The position numbers and the translations under genes were made by a program. Positions 4,202-19,070 of a stretch of DNA of 64,000 bases are shown here, one piece after another. The notes under the pieces are model-generated. The model was given only the letters and a program-made list of their open reading frames with translations, did no database searches and was not told the origin of the DNA. This stretch comes from an uncultured Clostridia bacterium (GTDB lineage: Bacteria > Bacillota > Clostridia > Christensenellales > CAG-917), in assembly GCA_949283145.1 (NCBI GenBank), contig CASDRL010000068.1, forward strand, positions 1,445 to 65,444, written 5' to 3'. Within the stretch, counting starts at the first letter, position 1; every line of letters starts with the position of its first letter.

Positions 4202-4213
4202 TTTGCTTTTTTT
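4176..4213 (+). terminator. Rho-independent terminator of the tRNA gene
   Basis: 13-bp perfect hairpin agcaaacaaaatc / gattttgtttgct with loop gaacca, followed by tttttt. Confidence 0.8.
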
Positions 4214-4334
4214 GATTGAAAGTTTTTGGTGTGGCGAGACTTTTGGCTGCAGCATGTGATCCGTGTCGCAAAACGGGAATTAATTACAATCGAATGAGAT
4301 AAGCACACGCCACGGTGCCAAATTGTGACAATGC

Positions 4335-4363
4335 TTGTATTATGTGATGGTGCGTTGTATAAT
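4335..4363 (+). promoter_or_regulatory. Possible promoter of the antitoxin gene
   Basis: TTGTAT, 17-nt spacer, TATAAT. It lies about 40 nt upstream of ATG 4403. The -35 element is weak. Confidence 0.3.
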
Positions 4364-4402
4364 TTAGGCATAAATTTGCATACAGCAAGAATGAGGTACG
4401 AT

Positions 4403-4684
4403 ATGATACAGACTATTATACCGCTGAGAGATCTTTCGAATAAGACGAGTCAAGTGGTGGAGCAGTGCGAGCGGAGCGGCGAGCCTATCTTCGTGACACG
4501 GAACGGTTATGGTGCGTTGGTCGTCATGTCAATGGAAGCATATCAAACGAGGATGGCGCAGCTCGACCTATATCAGCATCTTCTCGCCGCGGAAAAGGAA
4601 CTTGCCGATGACAAGCTCGTGCCTGCCGAGAAAGTGTTCGATAGCATAAATGAGATGCTCGAAAATGCAAAAGTGCAAGATTGA
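4403..4684 (+). CDS. Phd/YefM family antitoxin
   Basis: 93 aa. MIQTIIPLRDLSNKTSQVVEQCERSGEPIFVTRNGYGALVVMSMEAY is a typical Phd/YefM N-terminal fold sequence. A GAGG RBS precedes ATG 4403. The track start at 4325 is probably too long. Confidence 0.75.
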   Translation: MIQTIIPLRDLSNKTSQVVEQCERSGEPIFVTRNGYGALVVMSMEAYQTRMAQLDLYQHLLAAEKELADDKLVPAEKVFDSINEMLENAKVQD

Positions 4685-4748
4685 GTTTGCCGAGCTTACG
4701 AACAGAGAAATGCGCAACACCTTCGGTTATATCATGGGGACACGGTGA
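4665..4748 (+). pseudogene. Truncated ParE/RelE-like toxin remnant (27 codons)
   Basis: ATG 4665 overlaps the antitoxin 3' end by 20 nt, which is the classic TA arrangement. MQKCKIEFAELTNREMRNTFGYIMGTR* resembles ParE/RelE N-termini (..IEF.E.A..DL..I..YI) but stops after 27 aa. Confidence 0.4.
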
Positions 4749-4772
4749 TGTGGGCGCTTTATGGTGCCGTGA

Positions 4773-5516
4773 ATGGGAAGTGATGCTTTGATGGCGGAAA
4801 TAAGGTCTCATGTTTTATTGCCCAAATTCATTCTTCAGCGTTTTACCAACGCGGACAATTTTTTCTTTGTATATGATCCTGTCGCGAATGTAATAAAACG
4901 GAGTGGGCCGAAGCAGTTTAATGTAGAGAGGGGTTATTCTGCCCCTGATTTTGAGAGGCATCTCAATAAGAACATTGAAAGCGCATTCTCTTCGACCTTG
5001 TGCAAAATCGAAATTTTCCTGAGTGAGAGGGCAGATGCCGTATTGATTAAGCGCAGCACCATAATGGAATATTTTTATTCGCTCTTTGGAAGGTCTCCCG
5101 ATTTGCACCGCCATCTGACAGAAGATCCGTTTTTAAGCTTGGTCTATTCGCAACAGGAGCTACACTATTTGGCGACCGAGGGCGGTATGCAGGAGGCAAA
5201 AAGAGATTTTAAGGATCTGCACAGCGACATTGCTATAATAAACAATACGACGACAATAGATTTTGTGTTGCCGGCATCAGGGATTTGTGCATTTCCTTCA
5301 GATGAGCAAGAAAGCTACTATCTGATCTTATCACCCAAGCTTGCAATAAGAATATGCTCGCCGGGAGAAGATAGAGTGGCTGTTGGAAGAATGTCTGCAG
5401 ACAATATAATGTGGATCAATAGAGTAAGCATCCAACACGAAAAATTGAAAAAAGGCAAGATCATCGTTGCAAATAAAAGCCTTTTGAACGAGTTGCGAAG
5501 AAAACAATATTGTTAG
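4773..5516 (+). CDS. DUF4238-like protein
   Basis: 247 aa. The N-terminal HVLLPKFILQRFTNADNFFFVYD resembles the DUF4238 signature (H.vPqfYLk.F... then short-strand y.yd). This assignment is from memory, not a search. An alternative start is at 4791. Confidence 0.5.
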   Translation: MGSDALMAEIRSHVLLPKFILQRFTNADNFFFVYDPVANVIKRSGPKQFNVERGYSAPDFERHLNKNIESAFSSTLCKIEIFLSERADAVLIKRSTIMEYFYSLFGRSPDLHRHLTEDPFLSLVYSQQELHYLATEGGMQEAKRDFKDLHSDIAIINNTTTIDFVLPASGICAFPSDEQESYYLILSPKLAIRICSPGEDRVAVGRMSADNIMWINRVSIQHEKLKKGKIIVANKSLLNELRRKQYC

Positions 5517-5531
5517 CAAGGAGTGTCGATT

Positions 5532-6467
5532 ATGTCAGAACAAATTACTGCCGAAGAATTTGATGTAAAAATGAGAAGATTTAGGTTATGTCACAATGCG
5601 AAATACGATTATTTTGAGTTTGTTGATTTGTTTTCCGATGTTGAAAATATCCCCGGCAATAATAAGTTGGAAAACAGCAAAGTCATGAAAGTGATGGATT
5701 TTGCGATCGCAAATGATAAGGAGTTGAGAAAACCGCTTTCGCCGGGCACGGTATTTTACAGGGCAAGGTTAGTAAGAAATTTTAAAACAGAACTTGGCTG
5801 TGTTTTGGAAGGGAAAGACTATTTGGATGGTTTTGATTACTTTGGATCAAAAGAACCGCATTGCCTTGCGGGTGCATCAGGAAGATGTAATGTGGGTGGA
5901 ACTTCATATTTATACGGAGCGGAGGATGAGGTGACCGCATGTGCAGAGGTAAAGCCTGAATATAGTGAGATCATATCGCTCGGGAAATTTGTCTTAAAAC
6001 ATCAAATGGTGATGATAGATTTTGCAGATGATAGGATGATCAAGGAGTTGCGAGCTTGCGAAAAGGAATATAATGTCAGCGTTGCTTCATTGATCACTTG
6101 GATCATGCTTCAGTATGCAAAAGATTATGGGTCAGCCGGATATCGTGTTTGCCAGTATATCACAGACTATTTTCGAAAAGCAGGTTATGATGGCATAATA
6201 TATCGTAGTTCTCAAACTAATCATAAATGCTATGTATTTTTCAAATCGCATAAAAAGTTCATAGATTTCATGGGGAGTGAATTGGTATATGCAGACAGGA
6301 AGAACTATGCTTTTGCGAAATTAAAAAATGTTGGCGAAGCGCGGCAAGACGGAAAGCAAACAAGCGAAGTGATGCATGTTTGGATCGAAAACAACGAGCC
6401 TCGGACATCATTAAAAAATTTACATAAAGTGGCAGATACAATAAAGATAGCAAGGCGCCCCAAGTAA
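5532..6467 (+). CDS. RES domain-containing protein (putative NAD+-targeting toxin family) with N-terminal extension
   Basis: 311 aa. The R-E-S signature residues sit in their usual contexts: VFYRARL, YLYGAEDEVTACAEV and GIIYRSSQ. An AAGGAG RBS lies 8 nt before ATG 5532. There is a 6-15 nt gap after the DUF4238-like gene. Confidence 0.7.
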   Translation: MSEQITAEEFDVKMRRFRLCHNAKYDYFEFVDLFSDVENIPGNNKLENSKVMKVMDFAIANDKELRKPLSPGTVFYRARLVRNFKTELGCVLEGKDYLDGFDYFGSKEPHCLAGASGRCNVGGTSYLYGAEDEVTACAEVKPEYSEIISLGKFVLKHQMVMIDFADDRMIKELRACEKEYNVSVASLITWIMLQYAKDYGSAGYRVCQYITDYFRKAGYDGIIYRSSQTNHKCYVFFKSHKKFIDFMGSELVYADRKNYAFAKLKNVGEARQDGKQTSEVMHVWIENNEPRTSLKNLHKVADTIKIARRPK

Positions 6468-6707: not shown

Positions 6708-6823
6708 AAGAGTGTGCGATATGCGCATAAAGAAAGCCAACGATCCGATGTTTGTCGGTGCTAACGATTTTAGGCTTTCGAAAAATAAGCGAGCTGACCT
6801 ATCAAGGTCAAAAGAGGGCTTTT

Positions 6824-8038
6824 ATGGAAAAGACTATTTGTGAATTGTTTGCAGGAGTCGGCGGTTTTCGCCTTGGCTTCGACCGTCTTGGATCAGGTTG
6901 GAAAACTGTGTGGTTCTCGCAATGGGAACCCGGTGCCGCTACTCAATGGGCGCATAAATGTTATGTTAGTCATTATGGCGACAGTTGCGACCTGAACGGC
7001 GAATATCATACGGACGAAGATATAGCGGCTGTTGATAAATCAACGATCCCGTCACATTCATTGTTGGTAGGCGGTTTCCCCTGTCAAGATTATAGTGTGG
7101 CGCACACTCTCTCATCATCACAAGGGATCGAGGGCAAAAAAGGTGTGCTGTGGTGGCAGATACGAGAGGTATTGATAGCTAAAAAGCCCCCATTTTGCCT
7201 GCTTGAAAATGTCGATCGCCTGCTCAAATCTCCCGCAAAACAGAGAGGTCGTGATTTCGGCGTGATGCTCGCGTGTTTTGCGGCACTTGGATACAGCGTA
7301 GAATGGCGTGTCGTGAATGCCGCTCAATATGGTGCAGCTCAGCGTCGTAGACGCACATTCATCTTCGCTTACAGCAATAACACGACATATGGCAAAAACA
7401 TGGCGGAAAAAGACGCGAGCAAGGTCATAGAAAAAGAAGGACTTATGGCGCGCTCTTTCCCTGTGCAAGATGTGGGCGACATTTGTCAAAGACATATCGA
7501 TACCGATGTCGTCGCAGTAAGCGATACATTCGCGTTTGCGTTCGGAAATTCGGGATACATGCATGACGGAGTCATCTATACGGCAAAAGTGGTTGAAAAA
7601 GAAGATCCTTCAACGATGTTAGGGACTATCTTGCAGCGAAATGTCGACGAGCAATATTATATAACGACCGACAAGATGGCGAAGTGGGTATATCTTAAAG
7701 GCGCAAAAAAGATCCCCCGTAAGACAAGTGAAGGTCATGAGTATGTTTTTTCCGAGGGACCTATCGCTTTCCCCGACCCATGGGATCGTCCTGCGAGGAC
7801 CATGCTCACGAGTGAGTCGACGCTGAACCGCTCCACGCATACAGTAGTCGATCCCGGTACCGGCAGGATACGCATATTGACACCTGTCGAGGCAGAGCGG
7901 ATCCAAGGATTCGATGATGACTGGACGGCAGGGATGCCTGATAGGATGAGATATTTTTGTATGGGAAATGCATTGGTCGTACCGATGATAACACGCATGG
8001 GAAAAGTGCTGGACGGTATCATAACGGCCGAGCAATGA
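6824..8038 (+). CDS. DNA (cytosine-5)-methyltransferase, copy 1 (M.Sau3AI-like architecture)
   Basis: 404 aa from ATG 6824, with RBS AAAGAGGG. C5-MTase motifs are present: ELFAGVGGFRLGF (I), GGFPCQDYS (IV), ENV (VI), QRRRR (VIII) and GNALVVP (X). Confidence 0.9.
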   Translation: MEKTICELFAGVGGFRLGFDRLGSGWKTVWFSQWEPGAATQWAHKCYVSHYGDSCDLNGEYHTDEDIAAVDKSTIPSHSLLVGGFPCQDYSVAHTLSSSQGIEGKKGVLWWQIREVLIAKKPPFCLLENVDRLLKSPAKQRGRDFGVMLACFAALGYSVEWRVVNAAQYGAAQRRRRTFIFAYSNNTTYGKNMAEKDASKVIEKEGLMARSFPVQDVGDICQRHIDTDVVAVSDTFAFAFGNSGYMHDGVIYTAKVVEKEDPSTMLGTILQRNVDEQYYITTDKMAKWVYLKGAKKIPRKTSEGHEYVFSEGPIAFPDPWDRPARTMLTSESTLNRSTHTVVDPGTGRIRILTPVEAERIQGFDDDWTAGMPDRMRYFCMGNALVVPMITRMGKVLDGIITAEQ

Positions 8039-8087
8039 TGCGATAGCGTTGAAATATACCGCTTTTGATGATAAGGAGGATGTTGCG

Positions 8088-9443
8088 ATGGAAGGCACGG
8101 CATATTTGACGAGAGGTGATGTTCTAAGACGAGCACAAGATATCATCGGCATCCCACTGAAGGACATCGACAAAACGGGGCGGCTTGCTTCCGGCAAGGG
8201 TGCGATAGGCACAGTCATCGAAGAAAATTGGTTCGGTTATTCTCCCAATTCAGAATCGGAGCCTGATTTCCCCGAGGCAGGGGTAGAGCTTAAGGTCACG
8301 CCCTATGTCCATGGGAAAGGTGGGATCCGAGCGAAAGAGAGATTGGTTTGCAATATCATCAATTACATGGAAGAATACGACCGCACTTTTCACACAAGCT
8401 CATTTTGGCATAAGTGCAGCACCATATTGCTGATGTCATATGAGCATCGTGATGATGTCCCCAAAGGCGATCTTAGCATAGATAAAGCCATCCTGTTCAG
8501 TTTTCCGGAAGAGGACCTGCGCATCATAGAACACGATTGGGAAACGATCATCACAAAAGTGCGCAAAGGTCTGGCTCACGAAATAACGGAAGGCGACACA
8601 TTATATTTGGCGGCTTGTACAAAAGGAGCAAATGCCGCAAGCGTGCGCAAGCAGCCATTTTCCGATATCCCGGCAAAGCAAAGAGCCTATTCGCTCAAAT
8701 CATCTTACATGACGCAGATATTACAAAGGTATATCTTTGGGATGGAAGAAAACGAACGGATAGTGAAAGATTGGCATGTGTTAGCAAGGACTTCATTTGA
8801 AGGATACTTGATCGCCAAGCTCTCTCCGTATTATGGAAAAACACAAGAAGAGTTGATGACATCATTTGGCGTGACAAAGAAGCCAAAAAACATAAATGAT
8901 ATCTTGTTGGGTAAGATGCTCGGCATCCATGGCAGGATCGCACAAACGGACGAATTCAAAAAAGCAAGCATCGTCCCTAAAACGATCCGCGTTCGTCGCG
9001 ACGGGACGATCAAGGAGTGCATGTCTTTTCCGCCATTTGACTTTATCAAGCTGAGTCAAGAAACGGAATGGGAGTCGTCGGAACTTTATAATTACCTTGC
9101 TCCTACCAAATTCTTGTTTGTGATATTTCAAGAAAACGAGGAAGGGAAATTAGTGTTCGACCGAGTCAGATTCTGGAATATCCCGAGTCGCGATCTTGAC
9201 GAAGTGGAGCGTGTTTGGCGCAAGACAAGAGATACGATCCAAAGAGGTGTCGTTTTGCAGGAAACGAAACAAGGGGTAAGGAACGATCTTCCGAAAGCAA
9301 GTGAAAGCCATGTCGCTCATGTCCGTCCGCACGCGAAAGATGGCAAGGATCGTGCGCCGTTACCCGATGGTCGTATGATGACGAAGCAATGCTTTTGGTT
9401 GAATAATTCATACATCGCCGAACAATTGAAAAGGCTCAACTGA
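8088..9443 (+). CDS. Type II restriction endonuclease, Sau3AI/MutH-like (probable GATC specificity)
   Basis: 451 aa. The N-terminal MutH/Sau3AI-type block is GKGAIGTVIEENWFG...EPDFPEAGVELKVTP...KERLVCNIINY. The blocks AKQRAYSLKSSYMTQILQRY and FWLNNSYIAEQL match my recollection of Sau3AI. AAGGAGGA RBS. Confidence 0.75.
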   Translation: MEGTAYLTRGDVLRRAQDIIGIPLKDIDKTGRLASGKGAIGTVIEENWFGYSPNSESEPDFPEAGVELKVTPYVHGKGGIRAKERLVCNIINYMEEYDRTFHTSSFWHKCSTILLMSYEHRDDVPKGDLSIDKAILFSFPEEDLRIIEHDWETIITKVRKGLAHEITEGDTLYLAACTKGANAASVRKQPFSDIPAKQRAYSLKSSYMTQILQRYIFGMEENERIVKDWHVLARTSFEGYLIAKLSPYYGKTQEELMTSFGVTKKPKNINDILLGKMLGIHGRIAQTDEFKKASIVPKTIRVRRDGTIKECMSFPPFDFIKLSQETEWESSELYNYLAPTKFLFVIFQENEEGKLVFDRVRFWNIPSRDLDEVERVWRKTRDTIQRGVVLQETKQGVRNDLPKASESHVAHVRPHAKDGKDRAPLPDGRMMTKQCFWLNNSYIAEQLKRLN

Positions 9444-9444
9444 T

Positions 9445-9876
9445 ATGCAACATCCAAGGTCATACGATTCGACGCCGGAGATCCGCGAGCGGATGTCTAA
9501 GGTGAGCTTAAAGAACGGCAAGGCGGAAACGCTTCTTGCGAAACGGCTTTGGGGCTTGGGATATCGATATCGTAAAAATTATAAAAAGCTTCCCGGCTCG
9601 CCTGATATCGCCATCACCAAGTTTAAGATAGTCATATTCGTGGACGGCGAGTTTTGGCATGGGAAGGACTGGGAAAATCGAAAAGCGCGTCTTAAACACA
9701 ACCGCGAGTATTGGATCGAGAAGATAGAAGAGAACATTGCCCGGGACAAGCGTGTCGATATGGCTCTTTCGCAAATGGGATGGACTCCCGTACACTTTTG
9801 GGAAAAGGATGTCCTTAAAAATACTGAAGAGTGCGTTCGGCTGATAGTTGATATGTTGGACGGAGGCAGGACATGA
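9445..9876 (+). CDS. vsr: Very short patch repair endonuclease
   Basis: 143 aa. TPEIRERMSKV...E..LAKRLWGLGYRYRKNYKKLPGSPDIA...IFVDGEFWHG is the Vsr signature. The start lies 1 nt after the REase stop. Confidence 0.9.
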   Translation: MQHPRSYDSTPEIRERMSKVSLKNGKAETLLAKRLWGLGYRYRKNYKKLPGSPDIAITKFKIVIFVDGEFWHGKDWENRKARLKHNREYWIEKIEENIARDKRVDMALSQMGWTPVHFWEKDVLKNTEECVRLIVDMLDGGRT

Positions 9877-11108
9877 ACGACATCCGAGTCGTAGAGTTGT
9901 TCGCAGGCGTCGGCGGTTTCAGGCTTGGATTAGAGGCTGCCTCCGAACACTTTAAGGTGATATGGGCGGATCAGTGGGAACCATATCAGAAGGAGCAATA
10001 TGCTTTTTCTTGCTATACCCAACATTTTGGGGCAGGCGCGGAGCATGTATGTGCCGACATAGCAAAGGCCAAGGATAAAGTGCCCGAGCACGACCTTTTG
10101 GTCGGAGGTTTTCCTTGTCAAGACTATTCCATTTTGAAAAAAGGCGCAAAGGGTATCGAGGGGCATAAAGGCAGGCTTTGGTGGGAAGTCGATGAGATAT
10201 TGCAGGAAAAGCGACCCAAATATGTCATCCTAGAAAATGTCGATCGCCTTATTCGCTCCCCGGCACAACAGAAAGGGAGAGATTTTTCTATTATACTGCG
10301 TTGTTTTTATGAAAAGGGTTATGCAGTAGAGTGGCGTGTCATAAATGCCGCCGAATATGGTTGCGCTCAGCGTCGTCGTCGCACATTTATCGTTGCATAC
10401 CACAATAGCACGCCGTTTTATCAAAAGCTGGCGGAAGAGGTGTGTAAACGATGGTTGAAGACCATGCACCGATATATCATAGCTGACGGCATTATGGCGC
10501 AGGCATTCCCGGTCGCAAGTTTTAGGGAAGAGTTCGTAGATCAGTGGATAGACGAGTTGATATTCACATCTGTTCAGGATGTTTCAGAAAGGCAGCGAGT
10601 CTATCTGTATGATGCCGGGATAATGATCAATGGCAGAGTTTATTCTGTCAGCGTTGAGCCAAAACGAACGCCATCCATACCGCTAAGAGATGTTTTAGAA
10701 AAGGTGGGGGTAGACGAACATCACTTTATCAAGGAAGACGAACTGCCGCTATGGACATATAAAAAGGGAGCGAAGTGCGAGCCGCGAAGACGAGCAGATG
10801 GCTCCGAATATATCTTTTCAGAGGGCGCGATGGCTTTTCCCGACTCCTTAAACAAGCCGTCACGAACGCTCATAACATCGGAAACGAAACTTTCGCGAAC
10901 ATCTCATGTCGTGCAAGACCATTTGACAGGACGGTTGCGCACTTTGACACCGATCGAATGCGAACGCTTGAATGGCTTCCCTGACGATTGGACTGTAGGC
11001 ATGCCCGAAAAAATGCGCTACTTTTGCATGGGCAACGCGCTTGTCGTCCCGTTGGTGACCATGATAGGCAACGCTTTGATCTCATGCATACGCCATGATC
11101 AGAAATAA
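9873..11108 (+). CDS. DNA (cytosine-5)-methyltransferase, copy 2 (paralog of copy 1)
   Basis: 411 aa with an ATGA overlap with vsr. Motifs present: VELFAGVGGFRLGL, GGFPCQDYS, ENV, QRRRR and GNALVVP. It is colinear with copy 1 through the variable region (YKKGAK..SEYIFSEGAMAFPD, RTLITSETKLSRTSHVV). Confidence 0.9.
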   Translation: MNDIRVVELFAGVGGFRLGLEAASEHFKVIWADQWEPYQKEQYAFSCYTQHFGAGAEHVCADIAKAKDKVPEHDLLVGGFPCQDYSILKKGAKGIEGHKGRLWWEVDEILQEKRPKYVILENVDRLIRSPAQQKGRDFSIILRCFYEKGYAVEWRVINAAEYGCAQRRRRTFIVAYHNSTPFYQKLAEEVCKRWLKTMHRYIIADGIMAQAFPVASFREEFVDQWIDELIFTSVQDVSERQRVYLYDAGIMINGRVYSVSVEPKRTPSIPLRDVLEKVGVDEHHFIKEDELPLWTYKKGAKCEPRRRADGSEYIFSEGAMAFPDSLNKPSRTLITSETKLSRTSHVVQDHLTGRLRTLTPIECERLNGFPDDWTVGMPEKMRYFCMGNALVVPLVTMIGNALISCIRHDQK

Positions 11109-11130: not shown

Positions 11131-12249
11131 GTGGATAAAGTAAAATTGATTTTAGATACATCACTGATTTACGACTTGATAGGCTTTGGTGAGAAGTCTA
11201 TCATGAAACCATACATAAATTACGATGAAATACGAAAAGAGCCGCTTTTTATCCCGACATATGCGGTGTTTGAATTTTTAAACAATCAACGGTTTTGTCA
11301 GAATTTTTCATATAATTATAAGAAAGTGAAGACTCTTGGCAAGATAATAGACTCACTTGATCTTGATGAAACTATCAAAGATGAGGAGATCATATGTTTG
11401 GAAGAGTTGCAAGAAAAAGAGCGTGAACGAGTGAAAACAGAACTTATAAAAAGAATATCGAAGTTATATGCGCATTATTTGACAAGTATATTCGCCGCAT
11501 TTCTTGCTGAAGAAGCAGATTTACTATCACGCGCCGATAAGCAACAAGGGAAGGACAAATATAAACATGATATTAGCATGATGTGCAAAGGGCTTGTTGA
11601 AAAGCGAGAATCTTTGATCGCTGATTTCCTGCTTCAAAAAATCGGAGAGGGCAACACTAACAAAAAAGTGATATATGATTTGGCATATTCTTGTTTGGAA
11701 CAGGATATGATCATATCCTATTTTTGTCTTGCAACATTTACATCGGCACAAACTTCGCAGAGCGCACTGTGTTCTGATTTCTTACAAGCAGTACAAAAAC
11801 AGCTTAACAATTTTCCGCCGGGATCCAAAGCTACTCCGAATGGAGATAATAACTTTTTTAAAATATTATTCGATTCTGTTGTTGCTCAATTATATTCTTT
11901 TTCAAGGGAGATGGATTGCTCAATCACACTTGAAAAGTGCCAAGATATGGAGTTTCGTCGTTTATCTAGACGATTAGCTTATGTGGACGATCCTGGCATA
12001 ATTGCATCCTACCTGAATGATTGGCTGCAAACCGTTGTCGGATTGAACAATAGACCACAAAAATACACGAGCATTCGAAATGATATCATTGATATGGCAA
12101 TAGCAATGATGCAAGCTCCAGCGGAATATCCTGGCCGCTCACTTCCGCTTTCATCAGATAAAGGGTTCCTAAGGCGTGTTGTACCCTATGATCACAATTA
12201 TACAAGGTTCGTCAACATTGCATTACTTGATACAAAGTGGCACCCATAA
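11131..12249 (+). CDS. Uncharacterised protein, possible split PIN-like nuclease
   Basis: 372 aa with a GTG start 22 nt after MTase copy 2 and RBS AAAGGGAG. The N-terminal KLILDTSLIYDLIG resembles PIN strand 1, and the C-terminal RNDIIDMAIAMM resembles the late PIN acidic motif. I recognise no other family. Confidence 0.6.
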   Translation: MDKVKLILDTSLIYDLIGFGEKSIMKPYINYDEIRKEPLFIPTYAVFEFLNNQRFCQNFSYNYKKVKTLGKIIDSLDLDETIKDEEIICLEELQEKERERVKTELIKRISKLYAHYLTSIFAAFLAEEADLLSRADKQQGKDKYKHDISMMCKGLVEKRESLIADFLLQKIGEGNTNKKVIYDLAYSCLEQDMIISYFCLATFTSAQTSQSALCSDFLQAVQKQLNNFPPGSKATPNGDNNFFKILFDSVVAQLYSFSREMDCSITLEKCQDMEFRRLSRRLAYVDDPGIIASYLNDWLQTVVGLNNRPQKYTSIRNDIIDMAIAMMQAPAEYPGRSLPLSSDKGFLRRVVPYDHNYTRFVNIALLDTKWHP

Positions 12250-12401: not shown

Positions 12402-12443
12402 AATTTTAAAGTCTACTGCGCCTGATGTGTGAGATGTATTGTT

Positions 12444-12881
12444 ATGAAAATTGGCGATATAATGACTCCGAAGTGTCACGATATACCAAAAGAATTTTGG
12501 TATCCTGTCAATTCAGAATCGCGTGAAGTGTTGGTTTATCGATTAACAAAATTGTCTAATGATATATCAGATGAGGACTTCCTATCAAATTACGAAATAG
12601 ATAAAAGCAGAGGAACTATTATGGCGGGAAACCTAGGTGATGATAGATATTATGGCCTTTCGGTTTTAGAGGATAAGTCAGATGCGGAAGTTCTGCTCAA
12701 AAAAATAGCTGCAAAAAGAAATCTGAAAGGGATCGCATGCGGCAAAACGCGTGTGACTGATGGGGTCATAAGGCAAACGCCCTCATTAACATTGCCGTCT
12801 CACATTACATGGTGGCTCTTTGAAGGCGCGGCACCTGAAACATATTTTACTTCGATACAGGATGGGGAAGACAATGAATGA
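12444..12881 (+). CDS. Uncharacterised protein (145 aa)
   Basis: An AT-rich ORF with coding-like composition. Its stop overlaps the start of the next gene by 8 nt. I recognise no family. The start is uncertain (GTG 12429, ATG 12444 or ATG 12462). Confidence 0.55.
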   Translation: MKIGDIMTPKCHDIPKEFWYPVNSESREVLVYRLTKLSNDISDEDFLSNYEIDKSRGTIMAGNLGDDRYYGLSVLEDKSDAEVLLKKIAAKRNLKGIACGKTRVTDGVIRQTPSLTLPSHITWWLFEGAAPETYFTSIQDGEDNE

Positions 12882-14034
12882 AAATTCTTTCGTGTGTAGC
12901 CCCAGATATGGGGAGCTATATTATGATGAAATCTTTTTGTATTATGACGGTCCATGCCTGTTTTCGCTACGAAACATTTTGGGCTATCGCTTTATAGCAA
13001 TTTTAGAACGCGAAGATTCGGCGCGTTCAAGGTATGTTATTGCCCCGGTATCGGTGGCAAGGTATAAAGCGTTTGTGGAAAATAGATATTCAATCAGGCA
13101 TGTTTTTACCAAATCAGAAATGGGGGGCGTTTTCGCGGCAGAATTCAATCAGCATGGAGCGCACTTGTATGATATCGCAGCTGATGAATTGGAGAATTTA
13201 AATTTACCAGATGATGCAGAAATGTTAGAATATAATGGTAGCTACTTAAGAAATGAAATTGTATACAATGCATCAGAATTTAATGTGCCTATCATTCAGA
13301 AATCGCTTGAAAAACATGGCGAACACAGACAGTATATTTTTGCAAGAGAATTTGCGAGAGAAAGCGAGGGATTCCAAAGGATATTTGATGGAATAGCAAA
13401 AGATGCTATACAGGCTATCCCTGAAGACAAATGCACACCGAAAATAAAAAAGCGAATAAAAGAATCTTGTCAGATCCCTTTAATGAAAACATATGCCGCT
13501 TCTTTTGGAGTTCAAATAGAAGGAATTGAGTTCGCATCATTAGGGGAGGATGAGTCGGATTTTTGTAAGCACATCGCGACATATTTTGCTCTGTTGGAGA
13601 TGGGAGATTCTGCAAATGATGACTTTTACGCCCAACACAAGCATGCAATCGTAGCTTTAAGAAAATACTATAAAACCTTGCTGTCATTGGGTTTCGATGT
13701 TAAATTGCAGGCGGCAACTCCAGCGCATAAATATTACAAGAGCTATTTACAAAAAGCCACAATACTTGAAAGGTATCAATATTTGAATGGCATTATCGGA
13801 ATCGATACCGAGCAATTAACATTGGTAGGAACTTGGTCGGAGATAAATATTGATAATAAAACATTTAAGTTCAAATGCAAATCAGGAGAAATGGTCGCGG
13901 GTTCTTTCGATGAGGATTTCGATGAATCCATATTTGATTTTGAAAGCGAGATAAGCGTCATCGTGGATAAGGCAATTTCAGTAGCGCGAGCAGGTGATGA
14001 ATCTGAGAAGTACACATTGTTGTCAATAGTTTAA
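12874..14034 (+). CDS. Uncharacterised protein (386 aa)
   Basis: ATG 12874 is preceded by GGGGAAG and overlaps the upstream gene, implying translational coupling. No recognisable catalytic motif or P-loop. The track start at 12820 was rejected. Confidence 0.65.
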   Translation: MNENSFVCSPRYGELYYDEIFLYYDGPCLFSLRNILGYRFIAILEREDSARSRYVIAPVSVARYKAFVENRYSIRHVFTKSEMGGVFAAEFNQHGAHLYDIAADELENLNLPDDAEMLEYNGSYLRNEIVYNASEFNVPIIQKSLEKHGEHRQYIFAREFARESEGFQRIFDGIAKDAIQAIPEDKCTPKIKKRIKESCQIPLMKTYAASFGVQIEGIEFASLGEDESDFCKHIATYFALLEMGDSANDDFYAQHKHAIVALRKYYKTLLSLGFDVKLQAATPAHKYYKSYLQKATILERYQYLNGIIGIDTEQLTLVGTWSEINIDNKTFKFKCKSGEMVAGSFDEDFDESIFDFESEISVIVDKAISVARAGDESEKYTLLSIV

Positions 14035-14162
14035 TATGGTGACAAGATTATAAATTCTGATGACATTCGCTATCGTATCAAATACAGCAAATGCAGAGAT
14101 GTTTCCATTTGGTCAATTTTAAATGCAATGATTGAGAATGCATTCGTTTTAGGTTATTGTCA

Positions 14163-14220
14163 TTCCCACAGCATAGCAAAAGGGACGGCGCTTGCCGTCC
14201 CTTTTGCTATGCTGTGGGAA
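14163..14220. repeat. Perfect 27-bp inverted repeat (hairpin, 4-nt loop)
   Basis: ttcccacagcatagcaaaagggacggc gctt gccgtcccttttgctatgctgtgggaa. It lies at the start of a GC-rich non-coding block inside the AT-rich island. No T-run follows. Confidence 0.85.
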
Positions 14221-14385
14221 CATCCGCTGGCGAGAACCTCGCGCGTCCGAGACATACGGGCGGGGCGCATGTTCTCATTCCATTGTGCGTGAAAGAGTTT
14301 CTTCGCGCACAGGTTCGGCGACTTGCAGACGGTAGCAGGGCAGAGGAAAAACATCCATGCAAGACGCTTTCGCAGTTGGGCGAAT

Positions 14386-14402
14386 GTCCTGTTGTCCCAC
14401 CA
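14386..14402 (+). repeat. Remnant copy of the tRNA-Val 3' end (internal att-like site)
   Basis: gtcctgttgtcccacca compared with tRNA 4156-4173 gtcctgttgtccccacca, a difference of one C deletion. The upstream sequence does not fold into a tRNA. Confidence 0.6.
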
Positions 14403-14403
14403 A

Positions 14404-14476
14404 ACGGGAACTATCCGGACACCACTATTACAGAACAGTGGGGGCGGGTAGTTTTTTTTATTGCCGCCGAAGGAAT
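14404..14476 (+). repeat. Imperfect direct repeat, copy 1 (IS200/IS605-type end remnant?)
   Basis: The first 40 nt match 16849-16888 at 36/40 positions (acgggaRctatccg..ccactattacNgaacagtgggg). Both copies end in cgccgaaggaat. Further patchy similarity downstream (cagtcctNgcgg). Confidence 0.7.
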
Positions 14477-14723
14477 AGGATTACCGTATAAAAGCCAAGC
14501 AAATCAAATTGTCCTAATCGCCCCTCAATTAATCTATGGTGATTATTTAAAAGCAAACAACAGTCCTGGCGGCAACCACAGCTTCCGAACACACTATTTT
14601 CGTTTATTATATCTCTATTGGAAAATCCGATCAACTATCGGAGATTTCAAATGATAAATCGTTAGTAATCTTTAACTCCCAAGTCAATCTTCTCATAATG
14701 ACGATCATATGTATTGCAGACTA

Positions 14724-14752
14724 TTGATTTCCTTACCAAAATGCAGTATAAT
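14724..14752 (+). promoter_or_regulatory. Putative sigma70-type promoter of the 658-aa gene
   Basis: TTGATT, 17-nt spacer, consensus TATAAT. It lies 40 nt upstream of ATG 14792. Confidence 0.55.
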
Positions 14753-14791
14753 ATATTCAAATAGCTATTAAGAAAAATTTGGTGAATACTA

Positions 14792-16768
14792 ATGAATAAA
14801 ACAGTCAAAAATTATTACATTCTTAAATCAAAATGGTTACCGCAAGATACTGTTAGTACATTTATGCCTTTTGTAATAAATTTAATACGTTCTGAAAAGA
14901 TAGAGTCTTGCACTATCGAAGAATTGTCTGAGCAATTCAAGTATAAATATGGATATAGATTGGAAATGTTTATTTTGCGTCCGATTTTAAATAATATGAA
15001 ACAGAATGGTTATGCGGATATAAAACACGGCAAATGGATTTTTTATAAAGACACAATGCCGAATGTTGACTTGGACTCAGAGGCAAATATTTTTGATGAG
15101 AAATATAATAAACTTATCAACGGGTTTGTAGATTTTTGTAATGCTCCCGATGAAATTAACTATAACGCAGCGGATAAAATCATTACCGATTTTATTTATG
15201 ACAACAACTTTGACACCAAAGTATATACAGGGCGTGGGACTCTATATGATGAGAGTGATACTTATAGGTATTTTTTGTCAGGATATATTCAACAATTGAA
15301 AGAAAAAAATGATCCCTTGTTTAATTTTATTGTTTCCTTATGCGAAAGTACTCTGATTAAGTCATATATGTTCAATGAAGGGCTAAAAAGTAGTGCTTTT
15401 ATAAATAAAACCCTATATATTGACACCCCTATCATTTTTAGATTGCTTGGATATTATGGCGATTTTTATGAGCAAGAATACAAGTTTTTAATCCAAAGCT
15501 TGCTTGAGAAGAACTGCAGAATTTATATTTTTAAGCGAAACTATGATGAGGTCTTAAAAGTTTTGCGTACAGCCGAAAAATATGTTGAAAGCGTTCAATA
15601 CGATATGGCTCGCTCTTCAGACGTTTGCAATTATTTTAGAAGTCAAAATATGCGTGCCGAAGATGTTGCCGAAGAAATAGAATTGTTGAATAGTCACTTG
15701 ACTAAATTGGGGATAGATTTGTTTAATACTGATGTTGATTGGGATGATAAACTTTTTGTGGAAAGCTATGATAGTATCCGTAATGGAATCATACAGGAAT
15801 ATTGTACATCTTCTAAAGATAAACGGTATTTACCGGAAGCCGCTATAAATATAGATACTGATAGTACGATGCATATCTATAGTTTGCGAAAGAATAACAA
15901 CATAATAAAATTGTCAGATGCTCCTTGTTTTTATATAAGCAGTAATTTTGGCTTTGTTAATGCAATAAGAAAATATAATAACGAACATTATAAAGAAACC
16001 ATATCACCGGTAATAAGTGATGCGTTTATAGGAATGATAATAAGCGGTGAAAACTCACAAAAGGCACAACAGGTTGCAACAAATAAAGTGTTGTCATTCT
16101 GTTATAGCGCATATAAGCCGTCTAGAGCTATGTTAAGCAAATTTGTAGAATTGGTGGAACAAGAAAAAGAAGCGTCAAGGATAACGGAAAATGACTATAT
16201 AGCAATACGAAACCATACAATGGTTAATGACTTTTTGGTTCGCAGTACACAAAATAATATTGAAGAATTGTCTCAAAACACGGTGTATGAAGTATTGGAT
16301 CTTATAAAAGCCGATCATATTTTTGACGCACAGAAATCTTTTGATAGACAAACACAAGAAAGAGAAGATCATCACAAAACAGAAATTGCATCTTTGACAA
16401 AAATAAAAGACGAAGAAATTGAAAAATTACGACACAAGAATTATTTATTAAGAGCACAACAAGCACAAAAACAGTTCAATGTATATAAATTAAAGGTTAA
16501 AATTGGCTTTGGAATTATACTATCACTAATTGCTGTGCTTTTATTGGGTGGAACCATTACGCAAATAGCGTTGGTGTGTTTAGACAAAATTACCAAATTA
16601 GCGATAATATCAACAATTATAACGGGATTGGGCTCTTTGTTGACAATCACGTTTGAAATTATTTCATATAAAAATGATTTTGATAAATGGTTTGTTAAAA
16701 AGTTGTTTGACAAACGAAAACTAAAGATTTGTCAAACAAATAGTCTATCAATTGAAGATATGGAATAA
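14792..16768 (+). CDS. Uncharacterised 658-aa protein with coiled-coil and two C-terminal transmembrane helices
   Basis: This is the most AT-rich gene in the window. The C-terminus has a K/E/Q-rich helix (EIASLTKIKDEEIEKLRHKNYLLRAQQAQ) followed by IGFGIILSLIAVLLLGGTITQIALVCL and LAIISTIITGLGSLLTITFEII. The central LYIDTPIIFRLLG and INIDTDS are weakly PIN-like. No P-loop. Confidence 0.75.
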   Translation: MNKTVKNYYILKSKWLPQDTVSTFMPFVINLIRSEKIESCTIEELSEQFKYKYGYRLEMFILRPILNNMKQNGYADIKHGKWIFYKDTMPNVDLDSEANIFDEKYNKLINGFVDFCNAPDEINYNAADKIITDFIYDNNFDTKVYTGRGTLYDESDTYRYFLSGYIQQLKEKNDPLFNFIVSLCESTLIKSYMFNEGLKSSAFINKTLYIDTPIIFRLLGYYGDFYEQEYKFLIQSLLEKNCRIYIFKRNYDEVLKVLRTAEKYVESVQYDMARSSDVCNYFRSQNMRAEDVAEEIELLNSHLTKLGIDLFNTDVDWDDKLFVESYDSIRNGIIQEYCTSSKDKRYLPEAAINIDTDSTMHIYSLRKNNNIIKLSDAPCFYISSNFGFVNAIRKYNNEHYKETISPVISDAFIGMIISGENSQKAQQVATNKVLSFCYSAYKPSRAMLSKFVELVEQEKEASRITENDYIAIRNHTMVNDFLVRSTQNNIEELSQNTVYEVLDLIKADHIFDAQKSFDRQTQEREDHHKTEIASLTKIKDEEIEKLRHKNYLLRAQQAQKQFNVYKLKVKIGFGIILSLIAVLLLGGTITQIALVCLDKITKLAIISTIITGLGSLLTITFEIISYKNDFDKWFVKKLFDKRKLKICQTNSLSIEDME

Positions 16769-16848
16769 ATTATATTATCGCGCTACAATAGCAATATCCC
16801 CAGTGTTTAGCTTTGTTAGGTTGCTTTAATTTGGCTTATATACATTAG

Positions 16849-16916
16849 ACGGGAGCTATCCGAATACCACTATTACCGAACAGTGGGGTCGGGGGGGGTA
16901 TTGACGCCGAAGGAAT
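16849..16916 (+). repeat. Imperfect direct repeat, copy 2, upstream of the IS200-like tnpA remnant
   Basis: See 14404-14476. It lies about 90-150 nt upstream of the tnpA pseudogene, consistent with an IS left end. Confidence 0.7.
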
Positions 16917-17004
16917 TATTTTCTGATTTTTTTGCCCTTCGTTGTGGCTATCGTAGCACAGTCCTCGCGGAAGTCAACGGGAAAAATTATCGCTGAAAAA
17001 TAAA

Positions 17005-17392
17005 ATAAGTCTATACACGGAAAGCCGTAAGCTGAAGAAAGAAGTCGGGGGAAATATTCAGAAAGTTATGCAAGTACAAGGACGTGGAAATATTGCAATC
17101 GGAAGCATGTCCGGAGGATCATATACGTATGCTTGTGTCCAGGCCGACTAAAATATCTGTGGCGAGTTTCATGGGGTATCTGAAGGGCAAAAGTTCAGTG
17201 ATGATATTCGAGAAACATGCAAACATGAGATACAAATATGGCAACAGGAAATTTTGGTGCAGGTGCTATTACGTAGACACGGTAGGGAAGAACACGACGA
17301 AGATAAAAGAATATATCGCCAACCAAATGAAAGAAGATAGGATGATGGAACAAATGACGATAACGGAACTGTTGGATCCGTTCAAACAATAG
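17005..17392 (+). pseudogene. tnpA: IS200/IS605-family Y1 transposase (TnpA) pseudogene
   Basis: The 17084-17392 frame gives ..EDHIRMLVS.PTKISVASFMGYLKGKSSVMIFEKHANMRYKYGNRKFWCRCYYVDTVG.., which is IS200 TnpA-like. The upstream part (..RKLKKEVGGNIQKVMQVQG) is in another frame, implying a frameshift near 17075-17085. The N-terminus and start codon are missing. The HUH motif reads HIR. Confidence 0.75.
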
Positions 17393-17629
17393 TGTTGGCG
17401 ATTCGCAAAAGGCGGACTACGGGTAAGCGATTTCGCTATGCTAGTATCAGAGGGCTATGCCCGCAAATTAAAAACCACTAGCTAAGCTGGTGGGTTTTAT
17501 TGTCATCTTTTCTTTTTCTTTCGCCATAATATAGTTGCCGTTATGCAGGGGAATTTGTGTTTGTCGTGATGCAGAAAACGGTCGGGGTGTTGTCATGGCG
17601 GTTTTGAGCTAGAGGTGTCAAATTTTGCC

Positions 17630-17676
17630 GTTAAAGGGCAATGTTTTATGAATTTTGCAAAATATTACCCTTTAAC
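17630..17676. repeat. Inverted repeat upstream of the ATPase gene (possible operator)
   Basis: gttaaagggcaat ... attaccctttaac, with 12/13 positions complementary and a 21-nt spacer. It lies about 60 nt upstream of ATG 17735. Confidence 0.4.
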
Positions 17677-17734
17677 TTGACTTTTAACGAGTGGGCGCGC
17701 TATCCTATCAATGTCTTGAACGGGAGGTCCGCAT

Positions 17735-18964
17735 ATGGAATTGTATGTTCGTGAAAAGTATCTCAAAAAGATGCGCGGGTTTTATCATGACACCGAGATC
17801 ATAAAAGTCATCACGGGCGTCAGGCGTTCGGGAAAGTCATGCCTGATGGAGATGGTGAAGGATGAGTTGCTCCGCGGCGGAGTGGATCCTGCGAACATCA
17901 TTTTTCTCGACCTTGAAAGCAAGGCGTACAGGAAGGTCAAGTCGGCAGATCGGTTGGAGGACCTTATAGATTCCTTGGGACAAGCCGAGGGGACGAAGTA
18001 CCTGTTCATAGACGAGATCCAAAATGTGAAGGACTTTGAAGAAGTCGTCAATGCTTACCGCGGCACGGGCGAGTATTCCGTGTTCATCACAGGCTCCAAT
18101 TCTTATCTTTTGAGCGGCGAGCTTGCCACAAAGCTCACGGGCAGGTATGTGGAGTTCGAGCTTTTCCCGTTGAGTTTTGACGAGTACCTCGATATGAAGG
18201 CGTTTCTCGGCAAAGAGGTGAATGCCAATTTGCTCATAGAGCTGAACAATTACTTGCAGGAAGGCGGTTTCCCCAAGGCGATCCAATACGACGATTTTGC
18301 CGACAAGCGCACCTATGTGCGCTCCGTCATCGACGAGATCTTCGAAAAGGACATCAAGAGGCGGGTGAAGGTGCGCAATGTCGAGACTTTCAACAATGTG
18401 CGCAATTTCATCATCAACAATTTCGGGGCTACCGTCAGCGTCAAGAGCTTGCAGGAGGCTTTGGCAAAAAACGGGATAGAGTTAAAACACGCGACTTTGT
18501 CGCGATATATCGAGGTGCTGCTCCAAAGCAAGATCCTTTATCAATGCGACCGCTTTGATATGAGATCCAAGCGCGCTCTCAGCGGAGAAAAGAAGTACTA
18601 TCTTGTGGACATCTCCTTCTATTTTGCGACGAACACCGACAACCGCATAAATTACGGTCCCGCATTGGAGAACATGGTGTATGTATATTCCAAAAGTCTT
18701 GACTACTCGGTGAGCGTCGGCAGGATAGGCAAGTTGGAGTGCGATTTCATTTTGCGGGATAATAAGCTCGACTATTGCTATGTGCAGGTCGCCTATACGA
18801 TCGGCGAAAGCAAAAGCACGGAGGACAGAGAATATGCGCCGCTTGAAAGCATTGCGGACAACTATCCGAAATATGTCCTCACCACCGATTACCTGCTGCA
18901 AAACCGCAACGGCATCAAGCATGTGAACTTGCTCGAATTCATGAAAAACCGTTCAAGCTTCTAA
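17735..18964 (+). CDS. AAA+ ATPase with DUF4143-type C-terminal domain (COG1373-like)
   Basis: 409 aa. Walker A is GVRRSGKS and Walker B is YLFIDEIQ. The layout is typical of AAA_14 + DUF4143 proteins. GGGAGG RBS. Confidence 0.8.
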   Translation: MELYVREKYLKKMRGFYHDTEIIKVITGVRRSGKSCLMEMVKDELLRGGVDPANIIFLDLESKAYRKVKSADRLEDLIDSLGQAEGTKYLFIDEIQNVKDFEEVVNAYRGTGEYSVFITGSNSYLLSGELATKLTGRYVEFELFPLSFDEYLDMKAFLGKEVNANLLIELNNYLQEGGFPKAIQYDDFADKRTYVRSVIDEIFEKDIKRRVKVRNVETFNNVRNFIINNFGATVSVKSLQEALAKNGIELKHATLSRYIEVLLQSKILYQCDRFDMRSKRALSGEKKYYLVDISFYFATNTDNRINYGPALENMVYVYSKSLDYSVSVGRIGKLECDFILRDNKLDYCYVQVAYTIGESKSTEDREYAPLESIADNYPKYVLTTDYLLQNRNGIKHVNLLEFMKNRSSF

Positions 18965-19011: not shown

Positions 19012-19048
19012 TCTCCATCATAAGCAAACAAAATCGAACCTGATTTTG
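19012..19048 (+). repeat. Island-flanking direct repeat, right copy (attR-like)
   Basis: tctccatcataagcaaacaaaatcgaacctgattttg, 33/37 identical to 4165-4201. GC content rises immediately downstream. Confidence 0.7.
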
Positions 19049-19070
19049 CATGATTTTTCTTGTGGAATAA

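Follow-up and report, generated by a model that had tools for sequence, protein, structure and literature searches.

Described counterparts of the locus analysed here include single proteins from defence contexts in which a membrane anchor is joined to a nucleic acid-binding or nuclease module, namely lactococcal AbiP, ShdA of the Shield system, and SNIPE, a membrane-bound nuclease that acts on entering phage DNA. In Escherichia coli, the single-protein, PIN-containing anti-phage systems DS-3 and DS-5 have been validated, and their catalytic residues are needed for defence (PMC13092281); according to Rousset et al., those anti-phage systems already known that include transmembrane (TM) proteins are believed to use them as suicide effectors. 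This work concerns a gene for a 658-amino acid (aa) protein within a 64,000-nucleotide (nt) stretch of DNA (hereafter the window; contig CASDRL010000068.1) from an uncultured Clostridia bacterium of the CAG-917 lineage. A preliminary description of the window had proposed this gene as a single-gene defence effector, a role for which it is now supported as a candidate by its genomic context, a fold search and the absence of a conserved partner. We consider it probable, if well short of certain, that the family represented by this gene functions as stand-alone, single-gene immunity against phages or other mobile elements, most likely through a membrane-tethered, metal-dependent nuclease.

The layout already noticed, of a soluble N-terminal region of ~560 aa, a K/E/Q-rich coiled coil and two hydrophobic C-terminal helices, was recovered, with the helices at residues ~571-593 and ~601-625. 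A full-length AlphaFold model of the target (pLDDT 72), read alongside hydropathy, composition and alignments of relatives, divides the protein as follows:

14792..16768, + strand: coding sequence (CDS), 658 aa (listing of open reading frames (ORFs); full-length homologues)
14849..15043, + strand: winged-helix-like unit (H-H-H-beta-beta), residues 20-84 (AlphaFold pLDDT 78-91; Foldseek matches to winged helix-turn-helix (wHTH) proteins)
15071..15376, + strand: helical linker, residues 94-195 (low-confidence model, pLDDT 41-64)
15389..16087, + strand: putative PIN-like alpha/beta nuclease domain, residues 200-432 (domain model, Foldseek, invariant columns)
15422-15424, + strand: candidate catalytic residue D211 (invariant column)
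15548-15550, + strand: candidate catalytic residue E253 (invariant column)
15854-15856, + strand: candidate catalytic residue D355 (invariant column)
15938-15946, + strand: candidate catalytic S383-S384-N385 (family consensus T-x-N)
16274..16501, + strand: K/E/Q-rich long helix forming a coiled-coil stalk, residues 495-570 (model and composition; runs on into TM1)
16502..16666, + strand: membrane hairpin, residues 571-625 (hydropathy; TM1 ~571-593, 7-residue loop, TM2 ~601-625)
16667..16765, + strand: basic amphipathic cytoplasmic tail, residues 626-658 (AlphaFold model and composition)

The full-length model contains a beta-alpha-beta domain at residues 207-420, with further helices after it. 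Because a fold search with the entire protein was diluted by its multi-domain architecture, a model of the domain alone was used (residues 198-445; pLDDT 85, pTM 0.82), which comprises five beta-alpha units, in keeping with the Rossmann-like alpha/beta/alpha sandwich and parallel beta-sheet of PIN-like proteins. When this was compared with the PDB using Foldseek, the matches with a probability above 0.5 were mostly PIN-fold proteins, the foremost of which had probabilities of 0.8-0.99, TM-scores on the target of 0.5-0.63, and E-values of 0.01-0.5. These included Rickettsia VapC2 (3zvk; probability 0.99, TM-score 0.54) and Pyrobaculum PAE2754 (1v8o; TM-score up to 0.63), and additional matches were found to PAE0151, AF1683, Mycobacterium tuberculosis VapCs, the minimal RNase P HARP, and FEN1/Exo1. 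A search of viral models was headed by a protein annotated as a 'PIN like domain' (probability 0.99, E-value 0.0098), followed by FEN/XPG nucleases. Conservation falls on the same domain: D211, E253 and D355 are the three invariant columns in alignments of 146 and of 74 relatives, which share ~20% identity with the target, and at least 90% conservation was observed at G220, Y337, S358, R366, T383 (Ser in the target), N385, G414 and P443. The AlphaFold models place the three acidic residues at strand ends and helix starts, in the order canonical for PIN domains, with D211 after beta1, E253 in the helix after beta2, and D355 before the helix after beta3; beta4 is followed by a conserved S/T-x-Asn motif (N385), at the position where PIN proteins have their fourth acidic residue. 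From this residue order and placement, D211, E253, D355 and S/T-x-N385 were assigned as a candidate metal site. The three segments that had previously been likened to a PIN-like acidic pattern are those that hold D211, E253 and D355.

On the N-terminal side, residues 20-84 matched the wHTH regulators 2g7u, 2co5 and 6sbs, as well as the winged helix of MCM, in Foldseek searches, and the unit is presumed, from its modelled fold, to bind nucleic acid. PDB profile searches with 18- and 146-member alignments returned only a weak match of the same residues to the C-terminal helical appendage of 4trb (E-value 1e-4), together with spurious TM matches to GPCR-BRIL chimeras. There is no hydrophobic segment in residues 1-60, the hydropathy threshold for a TM helix is not reached anywhere before residue 571, and no Walker A motif was found in the protein, in agreement with the lack of a P-loop reported earlier. 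On the C-terminal side, the AlphaFold model has one helix of ~100 residues (495-596) entering the membrane, and exactly two C-terminal TM helices are present in 226 of 255 full-length relatives. Across these 255 proteins, the flanks are basic (3.7 K+R per 15 aa ahead of TM1, and 3.2 past TM2), and the loop between the helices (median 10 aa, with 0.8 K+R) is nearly uncharged. Hence, by the positive-inside rule, the hairpin is oriented N-in/C-in, and therefore both the winged helix and the nuclease domain would lie on the cytoplasmic side.

This hairpin is also the basis of the best-surviving alternative, a pore-forming abortive infection (Abi) effector in which the coiled coil and TM helices would assemble into an oligomeric, depolarising channel resembling MCU or SLATT proteins, with the PIN-like domain serving mainly as its sensor or gate for phage nucleic acid, and not as the killing activity. 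We regard this as unlikely. It is nonetheless to be taken seriously, as the family's only recurrent Pfam signals are confined to the coiled-coil and TM region (DUF2207_C in 19 of 74 relatives, and MCU in three of 74, with a best E-value of 9e-8; MCU, PF04678, is also precomputed on about seven relatives), a SLATT model is touched by one of the 74, the hairpin is kept family-wide, and TM proteins of known systems are viewed as suicide effectors (Rousset et al.). However, there is little sequence conservation in the TM helices or the loop, and the invariant and near-invariant columns all sit in the PIN-like domain, with none in the hairpin, which argues that catalysis in that domain is the selected function. 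Furthermore, the target itself has no MCU match, its C-terminal Pfam match being to DUF2207_C only and below threshold (E-value 0.088), and the MCU matches of its relatives may reflect a generic composition of coiled coil, two TM helices and coiled coil. The weak MCU and DUF2207_C matches are read here as architectural resemblance, yet they keep the pore variant alive.

Both the size of the family and the carriage of the gene on a 2.6-kb cassette were overlooked in the preliminary description. With an exhaustive profile search, the number of representatives of 50%-identity clusters came to 3,280 at E<=1e-3 and 1,152 at E<=1e-30, nearly all of which are 620-700 aa in length and align end to end; a word-indexed search had retrieved just 21 clusters, and a second search of the annotated database with a wide profile found no further relatives. 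All of them are named at source either as 'hypothetical protein' or with a label that is plainly wrong. The family is large, fixed in architecture and unannotated, and spans Bacillota, Pseudomonadota, Bacteroidota-type, Chloroflexota and other lineages, mostly as singleton clusters. Members are found on plasmids of Enterococcus faecium (six records), Klebsiella quasipneumoniae, Pantoea, Sporosarcina, Hymenobacter and Arthrobacter. Two of these are clinical multiresistance plasmids (E. faecium pNY2032-2, L028, and K. quasipneumoniae pKA1-2, L029), on which the members are flanked by copies of IS1216/IS26 and have cat, erm(T), aac(3)-IVa and aph(4)-Ia nearby. In E. coli the gene is present in two of 5,426 complete genomes, both copies being inside P2-like prophages.

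The target has no match in Pfam, NCBIfam or PHROGs, nor to any of the 5,027 defence-protein hidden Markov models of PADLOC-DB v2.0 at E<=0.1, and the 74 relatives had only sporadic PADLOC matches (E-values of at least 2e-4) on their coiled-coil and TM regions. As the family was likewise not found among 50,697 phage records, the known phage or conjugation membrane protein that had been raised as a contrary identity did not emerge from any of these sources. Literature searches yielded no description of an architecture combining a winged helix, a PIN-like domain and a TM hairpin, and no paper that names the RefSeq accessions of the family in its main text. Nevertheless, E. coli WP_096936374.1 appears in Table S10 of the DefensePredictor study, which comprises 1,041 clusters that are predicted to be defensive and are uncharacterised, with a mean log-odds of 8.9 against a stringent cut-off of 4, and this protein is not in that study's tables of cloned systems (PMC13092281). 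It is a member of the family, aligning to it with an hhalign probability of 99.9% (E-value 3e-35, 530 columns) and with the candidate catalytic motifs in register. Hence the earlier label of 'undescribed' holds in that there is no family model or description, but not in that an E. coli member already stands in a supplementary list of predicted defence clusters.

Restriction-modification (R-M), Abi, TIR, Mrr, NERD or toxin-antitoxin (TA) genes neighbour the family in 9-10 of 12 sampled loci, a tally without a formal background control. The following nine illustrate the range:

P0006 (77% identity): directly 3' of a type I R-M system with an hsdS shufflon
P0007 (76% identity): last gene of hsdR-hsdS-DUF6414-hsdM-KilA-N
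P0010 (66% identity): Eco57I-type methylase, TIR_2, Abi_alpha and AAA_14-DUF4143, then Rep and a serine recombinase beside tRNA-Ala
P0015 (53% identity): Mrr and type I R-M
P0016 (53% identity): WYL, AbiH, AAA_13 and Abi_2
P0172 (main clade, ~20%): flanked by Mrr, DUF559, Mrr_N-Mrr and NERD
P0090 (main clade, ~20%): between MazE-Fic, GIY-YIG and DUF3800 on one side and a MazG-like protein, SLFN-type helicase and HNH on the other
P0187 (main clade, ~20%): adjoins a caspase-like protease and a run of TA modules
P0266 (main clade, ~20%): cargo end of a prophage- or satellite-like element

In more than 20 contexts inspected, no neighbouring gene was conserved, and the gene is therefore judged to be stand-alone; in particular, no adjacent antitoxin gene of the VapBC type was conserved in these contexts, and the cassette contains one ORF. 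Of the two E. coli copies, that of FDAARGOS_1337 is flanked by the tail sheath gene and the tail-fibre-assembly gene of a P2-type prophage, a site we take to be the Z/fun locus of the P2 map, and that of MEI7BO1-21 lies between ogr and gpD, beside hok/gef, in a P2 remnant. Z/fun has been named as a defence locus, and genes of unknown role at loci of this kind mostly turn out to be defensive, as did six of eight tested at the P4 locus (PMC13586616). Together with the cargo slot described below, these sites and the 9-10 loci bear out the expectation that homologues would lie near defence genes.

In the window, the gene is carried by a cassette with the following components:

14377..14402, + strand: degenerate tRNA-like 3' end (TGGGCGAATGTCCTGTTGTCCCACCA) abutting the cassette (intact tRNA-Glu CCA end at the same junction in L013 and L011)
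14398..17007, + strand: 2.6-kb one-gene cassette (hairpin, leader, promoter, gene, hairpin, ~115-nt tail)
14404..14476, + strand: left copy of a ~73-nt direct repeat (~17-bp interrupted hairpin at 14408-14451 and T8 run at 14452-14459)
14724..14752, + strand: promoter TTGATT-17-TATAAT (10/12 match; kept in L011-L013)
14781..14785, + strand: Shine-Dalgarno sequence GGTGA (from the sequence)
16849..16916, + strand: right copy of the direct repeat, decayed (T-run replaced by G-run; no stable fold)
16917..17030, + strand: ~115-nt conserved tail (also present in ~19 other loci, behind the hairpin that marks the left end of the PcfJ/PcfK-type element)

Among species-representative genomes, copies with 91-93% identity occur in Ca. 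Gallimonas (Clostridia; L011), Ca. Scatousia (Gastranaerophilales; L012) and a Christensenellaceae chromosome (L013). Nucleotide identity to these three is 89-91% and limited to 14398-17007, with none beyond those limits; on the evidence of these alignments, the gene has spread horizontally between unrelated gut lineages. In L013, the cassette is the entire insertion between Ppx/GppA-tRNA-Glu and ilvN-ilvB. It begins at a tRNA-type ...CACCA end; in both L011 and L013 the tRNA-Glu concerned is intact, whereas in the window only a degenerate remnant is present. Just before the cassette in L011 (about 9540-9645) there is a tandem duplication of the tRNA-Glu 3' part (…GGTTCGATTCCCGGCAAGGTCACCA twice), as expected from repeated integration at one tRNA site.

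The left repeat has the shape of an intrinsic terminator (-25.3 kcal/mol, z = -3.2), and the intact hairpin copies in L013 have z-scores of -4.0 and -5.0. The right repeat is 89% and 94% identical to the left (repeat families D2 and D14), and the window contains two occurrences of the hairpin's core motif, where 0.00 would be expected. In the right hairpin of the window, a G-run at 16890-16900 stands in place of the T-run (GGGGTCGGGGGGGGTATTG), giving z = +0.8 compared to -5.0 for the right copy in L013; owing to this decay, the target gene may lack a terminator in the window. Rfam models did not match the hairpin or leader, the only real match being the tRNA-Val of the surrounding island. Scanning metagenomes with the hairpin core identified 45 loci (L033-L077), in 43 of which the hairpin is directly 3' of a tRNA end or tRNA-like remnant, with T-arms that vary between loci. 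Approximately 19 of the 45 also carry ~115 nt identical to window positions 16917-17030, downstream of which comes a slot of variable content. This is followed by a backbone that is conserved and consists of DUF7222, a PcfK/MutS_I protein and PcfJ, marking an integrative/conjugative element. The almost invariant hairpin (~45 nt plus the T-run) marks the left end of this DUF7222-PcfK-PcfJ element family, and its first slot holds the following cargo:

L038: Gabija (GajA 5e-171, GajB 4e-92)
L060 and L066: CBASS (cyclase 3e-135 and SAVED-nuclease)
L037: Cas3 (3e-190)
L046: PDC-S06 / AAA_13 (1e-220)
L049: PARIS / PD-T4-4-like ATPase
L042: caspase-like protease
L057: AbiEii-like ATPase
L075: SIR2_2 and STAND NTPase
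L051: the 658-aa gene

The L075 locus (1-2800) has the same doubled-hairpin frame as the target cassette, with a 77%-identical leader of ~300 nt and a 765-aa SIR2-STAND protein, and the relative P0015 is directly upstream of DUF7222...PcfK-PcfJ. Hence the target gene is one interchangeable occupant of a defence hotspot, and this shared slot is the strongest contextual evidence for a role in defence. The common frame around two different cargos suggests a cassette-exchange mechanism at the junction of the hairpin and tRNA 3' end, and the hairpin is usable as a handle for mining unknown defence genes in gut Firmicutes.

Such mobility also invites the explanation that the protein serves competition between mobile elements or their maintenance, whether as an entry-exclusion nuclease directed against conjugative or transforming DNA, or as an addiction-type toxin. 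The presence of the gene on mobilisable or conjugative plasmids, at the cargo end of integrative/conjugative elements and in prophages is in keeping with this, and DNA entering the cell by any route would encounter a nuclease that faces the cytoplasm from the inner membrane. However, the family has no conserved antitoxin-like partner, and the slot elsewhere houses classical anti-phage systems, making this quite improbable as a separate explanation; it also overlaps heavily with the favoured immunity reading, from which it differs mainly in target.

A far weaker case can be made for the protein being the cassette's own recombinase or transposase, with the winged helix binding the hairpin repeats and the D-E-D site cutting and joining at tRNA 3' ends. 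The cassette has no other gene, is bordered by direct hairpin repeats, always abuts ...CACCA and has moved between phyla, but this candidate was rejected as very unlikely on several grounds. Firstly, the identical frame surrounds a SIR2-STAND cargo in L075, meaning the frame moves whatever it carries. Secondly, most hairpin copies have no such gene nearby, and most family members, in P2 prophages, on plasmids and in R-M operons, lack the repeats. Thirdly, the fold is that of PIN domains, rather than RNase-H/DDE or the HUH/Y1 of IS200/IS605. Fourthly, a membrane anchor would be unusual for a transposase, and the related elements have serine recombinases.

The cassette gene itself is real, since homologues match the ORF at 14792-16768 over its full length; 658 open codons would arise by chance with P~1e-26, a stop being expected every ~11 codons at this composition. 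The preliminary description had its end right and its start too early, as it ran from 14724, which is the first base of the -35 hexamer, whereas the CDS begins at 14792. The near-consensus promoter of its own that had been attributed to the gene is of the sigma-70 type, with TTGATT (14724-14729) and TATAAT (14747-14752) separated by a 17-nt spacer on the + strand. Its match to 10 of 12 consensus positions is the joint-best score within 14000-17800 and the sole such + strand match upstream of the gene, and it is nearly invariant in the three other genomes carrying the gene. The Shine-Dalgarno sequence GGTGA (14781-14785) is 6 nt upstream of the ATG. The gene had also been singled out as the most AT-rich, and it does have the lowest GC content of 13 island ORFs, although the measured value is 31.1% rather than ~35%; the island has a GC content of 41.9%, against 58.9% in the remainder of the window. 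RNase Y has a layout of membrane anchor, coiled coil and nuclease domain, and the resemblance of the target to it might indicate a housekeeping, membrane-associated RNA-processing enzyme, but this is the least likely explanation of all, given a patchy distribution (two of 5,426 E. coli genomes, and mostly singleton clusters), a GC content 28 points below that of the host, carriage on islands, prophages and plasmids, and ~90% identity across phyla.

Under the favoured reading of a membrane-tethered immunity nuclease, the C-terminal two-helix hairpin would anchor the protein in the inner membrane, leaving the remainder in the cytoplasm, where the ~75-residue coiled-coil stalk would carry it and probably drive oligomerisation. 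The N-terminal winged helix would then bind nucleic acid, for cleavage by the PIN-like domain at the putative metal site of D211, E253, D355 and S/T-x-N385. Two modes of action are considered most likely: the protein may cut invading nucleic acid near the membrane, at the point of entry, or it may be held inactive at the membrane until infection, and then cut cellular or phage RNA in the manner of VapC, aborting the infection. The gene would travel as exchangeable cargo, as a 2.6-kb cassette at tRNA 3' ends, and on integrative/conjugative elements, P2-like prophages and plasmids. We infer each of catalysis, substrate, trigger, oligomeric state, defence phenotype and the role of the anchor, be it positioning at the entry site or sequestration. 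A more specific conjecture, of an oligomeric PIN nuclease at the inner membrane that destroys foreign nucleic acid on entry, or else an MCU-like pore formed by its own coiled coil and TM hairpin and gated by nucleic acid binding at the nuclease head, spread as a minimal hairpin cassette that plugs into tRNA-proximal defence slots of integrative elements, is advanced tentatively, as a possible rather than an expected outcome.

A number of points weigh against the favoured reading. Firstly, the fourth canonical acidic position of the PIN-like domain is occupied by Asn. Secondly, the Foldseek E-values are modest (best 0.0098-0.03, with none <=1e-3), as would be expected from a PIN core carrying ~110 residues of helical insertions. 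Thirdly, the Pfam PIN families (PF01850 PIN, PF13470 PIN_3 and the PIN_8 type) do not match the target, even when the domain alone was scanned at E<=10, and PIN_3 is touched by one of 74 relatives, below threshold (E-value 2e-3); similarly, hhalign of the 146-member domain profile with two genuine PF01850 proteins from L022 aligned motif I only, at a probability of at most 1.4%. As the fold matches and these sequence-level tests fail, the domain is called PIN-like at the level of fold, outside the described PIN families. Fourthly, two of the 12 contexts in the uncontrolled tally are without defence genes (P0021, with 23% identity, and P0224, of the main clade), and the plasmid copies are solo ORFs whose surroundings consist of insertion sequence (IS) elements, recombinases and genes for resistance, not for defence. 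Lastly, the defence role and the nuclease activity are candidate functions in every member of the family, and by analogy the substrate might be RNA, as for VapC and HARP, or DNA, as for FEN, with the evidence favouring neither, nor any particular trigger.

The island that contains the cassette begins near a tRNA-Val(CAC) gene (4097-4173). A 56-nt direct repeat, consisting of the 3' end of this tRNA and its terminator, occurs at 4165-4220 and 19012-19067 (80% identical), and the two copies bracket ~14.85 kb of low-GC DNA with att-like borders. No integrase is encoded in this ~14.85 kb, which makes it probable that the island has decayed or relies on mobilisation in trans. The defence-island setting that had been ascribed to the gene is upheld by the type II R-M, Vsr, DUF6575 and PDC-S01 genes of the same island, the other features of which are:

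4325-4684: Phd-type (Phd/YefM) antitoxin
6752-8038 and 9873-11108: two Dcm methyltransferases
8049-9443: MutH/Sau3AI-like type II restriction enzyme (PADLOC REase_II, 4e-118)
9445-9876: Vsr mismatch endonuclease
11131-12249 and 12429-12881: proteins without assigned function
12820-14034: DUF6575 protein (weak PD-T4-10_B match)
17084-17392: 5'-truncated IS200 tnpA
17735-18964: AAA_14-DUF4143 ATPase (PADLOC PDC-S01, 2e-135)

Within 4325-6467, two proteins without a family match, of 247 aa and 314 aa, come after the Phd/YefM-type antitoxin and could be its unusual toxin partner. In the type II R-M cluster (6752-11108), the Dcm genes flank the endonuclease and Vsr, and share a 41-nt stretch with 80% identity. 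The 372-aa protein at 11131-12249 has no family match and an N-terminus (MDKVKLILDTSLIYDLIG; ...LILDTSLIYDLIG) that resembles PIN motif I; it was rejected as a paralogue or partner of the target, with an hhalign probability of 1.6%. At 12429-14034, a 150-aa ORF overlaps the start of the 404-aa DUF6575 protein, for which the PADLOC match to PD-T4-10_B has an E-value of 4.5e-6, and the two genes may together make up a candidate system. Downstream of the DUF6575 gene are a perfect 27-nt inverted repeat with a 4-nt loop (14163-14220) and a GC-richer stretch (14220-14400) that looks foreign or like a remnant, and ends in the tRNA-like fragment. On the other side of the cassette, the IS200-type tnpA remnant (window 17020-17500) is truncated at its 5' end exactly where the conserved tail of the cassette ends, and is probably inactive, as its HUH motif reads H-I-R; it was dismissed as a part of the cassette, being absent from that junction in L012 and L013. 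A terminator-like hairpin is found at 17475-17493. The AAA_14-DUF4143 ATPase was also rejected as an obligatory partner, as it adjoins the family in only two contexts, the window and P0010, where it is directly upstream (L005, 8459-9775), and its proximity is probably a coincidence of island content.

Set beside known systems, the target domain is like the VapC-type PIN ribonucleases (PF01850) in its fold, in the order of its acidic residues, and in having a T/S-x-polar motif after beta4. It differs in its size (~230 aa with helical insertions, rather than ~130 aa), in the Asn at the fourth acidic position, in the lack of a sequence-level match or an antitoxin gene, and in its fusion to a winged helix, coiled coil and membrane hairpin. 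HARP and FEN1/Exo1, which were recurrent Foldseek matches (7og5, 8ssg, 8kd9 and 3q8m), show the PIN-like fold as an enlarged, oligomeric nuclease specific for RNA or DNA structures, but with low TM-scores to the target (0.15-0.54), and these are housekeeping proteins without a membrane anchor. The coiled coil, TM helix, short loop, TM helix and final helix of MCU (PF04678) and other two-TM pore effectors follow the same layout, and some members have weak Pfam matches to them, but the family has no conserved pore-loop motif and the target no MCU match; the likeness is probably architectural convergence.

Among defence systems, the family is not one of those named or tested in surveys of the P2 cos-proximal, Z/fun and P4 hotspots (PMC9122126, PMC13586616), the P4 systems Bandua, Aernus, Toga and Reve have architectures unlike that of the target, and a review of lactococcal Abi systems describes no Abi protein with both PIN and TM regions. 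The same in concept is DS-3, a single PIN ribonuclease protein without an antitoxin, in which, comparing by description only, the PIN domain is split between the N and C termini, rather than central, and there is no mention of the TM helices or coiled coil that the target has (PMC13092281). AbiP, ShdA and SNIPE share with the target the union of an anchor and a nucleic acid-binding or nuclease module in one protein, but their folds and topologies differ, ShdA using an RmuC domain and AbiP an N-terminal anchor in place of a C-terminal hairpin, and PADLOC detected no sequence relation to any of the three. Hence the PIN fold, winged helix and membrane hairpin are each known, and it is their combination that has not been described before. 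If the phenotype is confirmed, this would be a new single-gene immune family with thousands of members, missed by Pfam, NCBIfam, PHROG and PADLOC models and present on E. faecium and Klebsiella plasmids and in P2 prophages. With one gene, three candidate catalytic residues and a removable anchor, it would offer a compact test case for the membrane control of a potentially self-toxic nuclease. Were the favoured reading true, PIN nucleases would extend from toxin-antitoxin modules to membrane-anchored, stand-alone immunity, and, should the protein act at the point of entry, it would apply the same principle as the entry nucleases bound to the membrane, through a fold unrelated to theirs.

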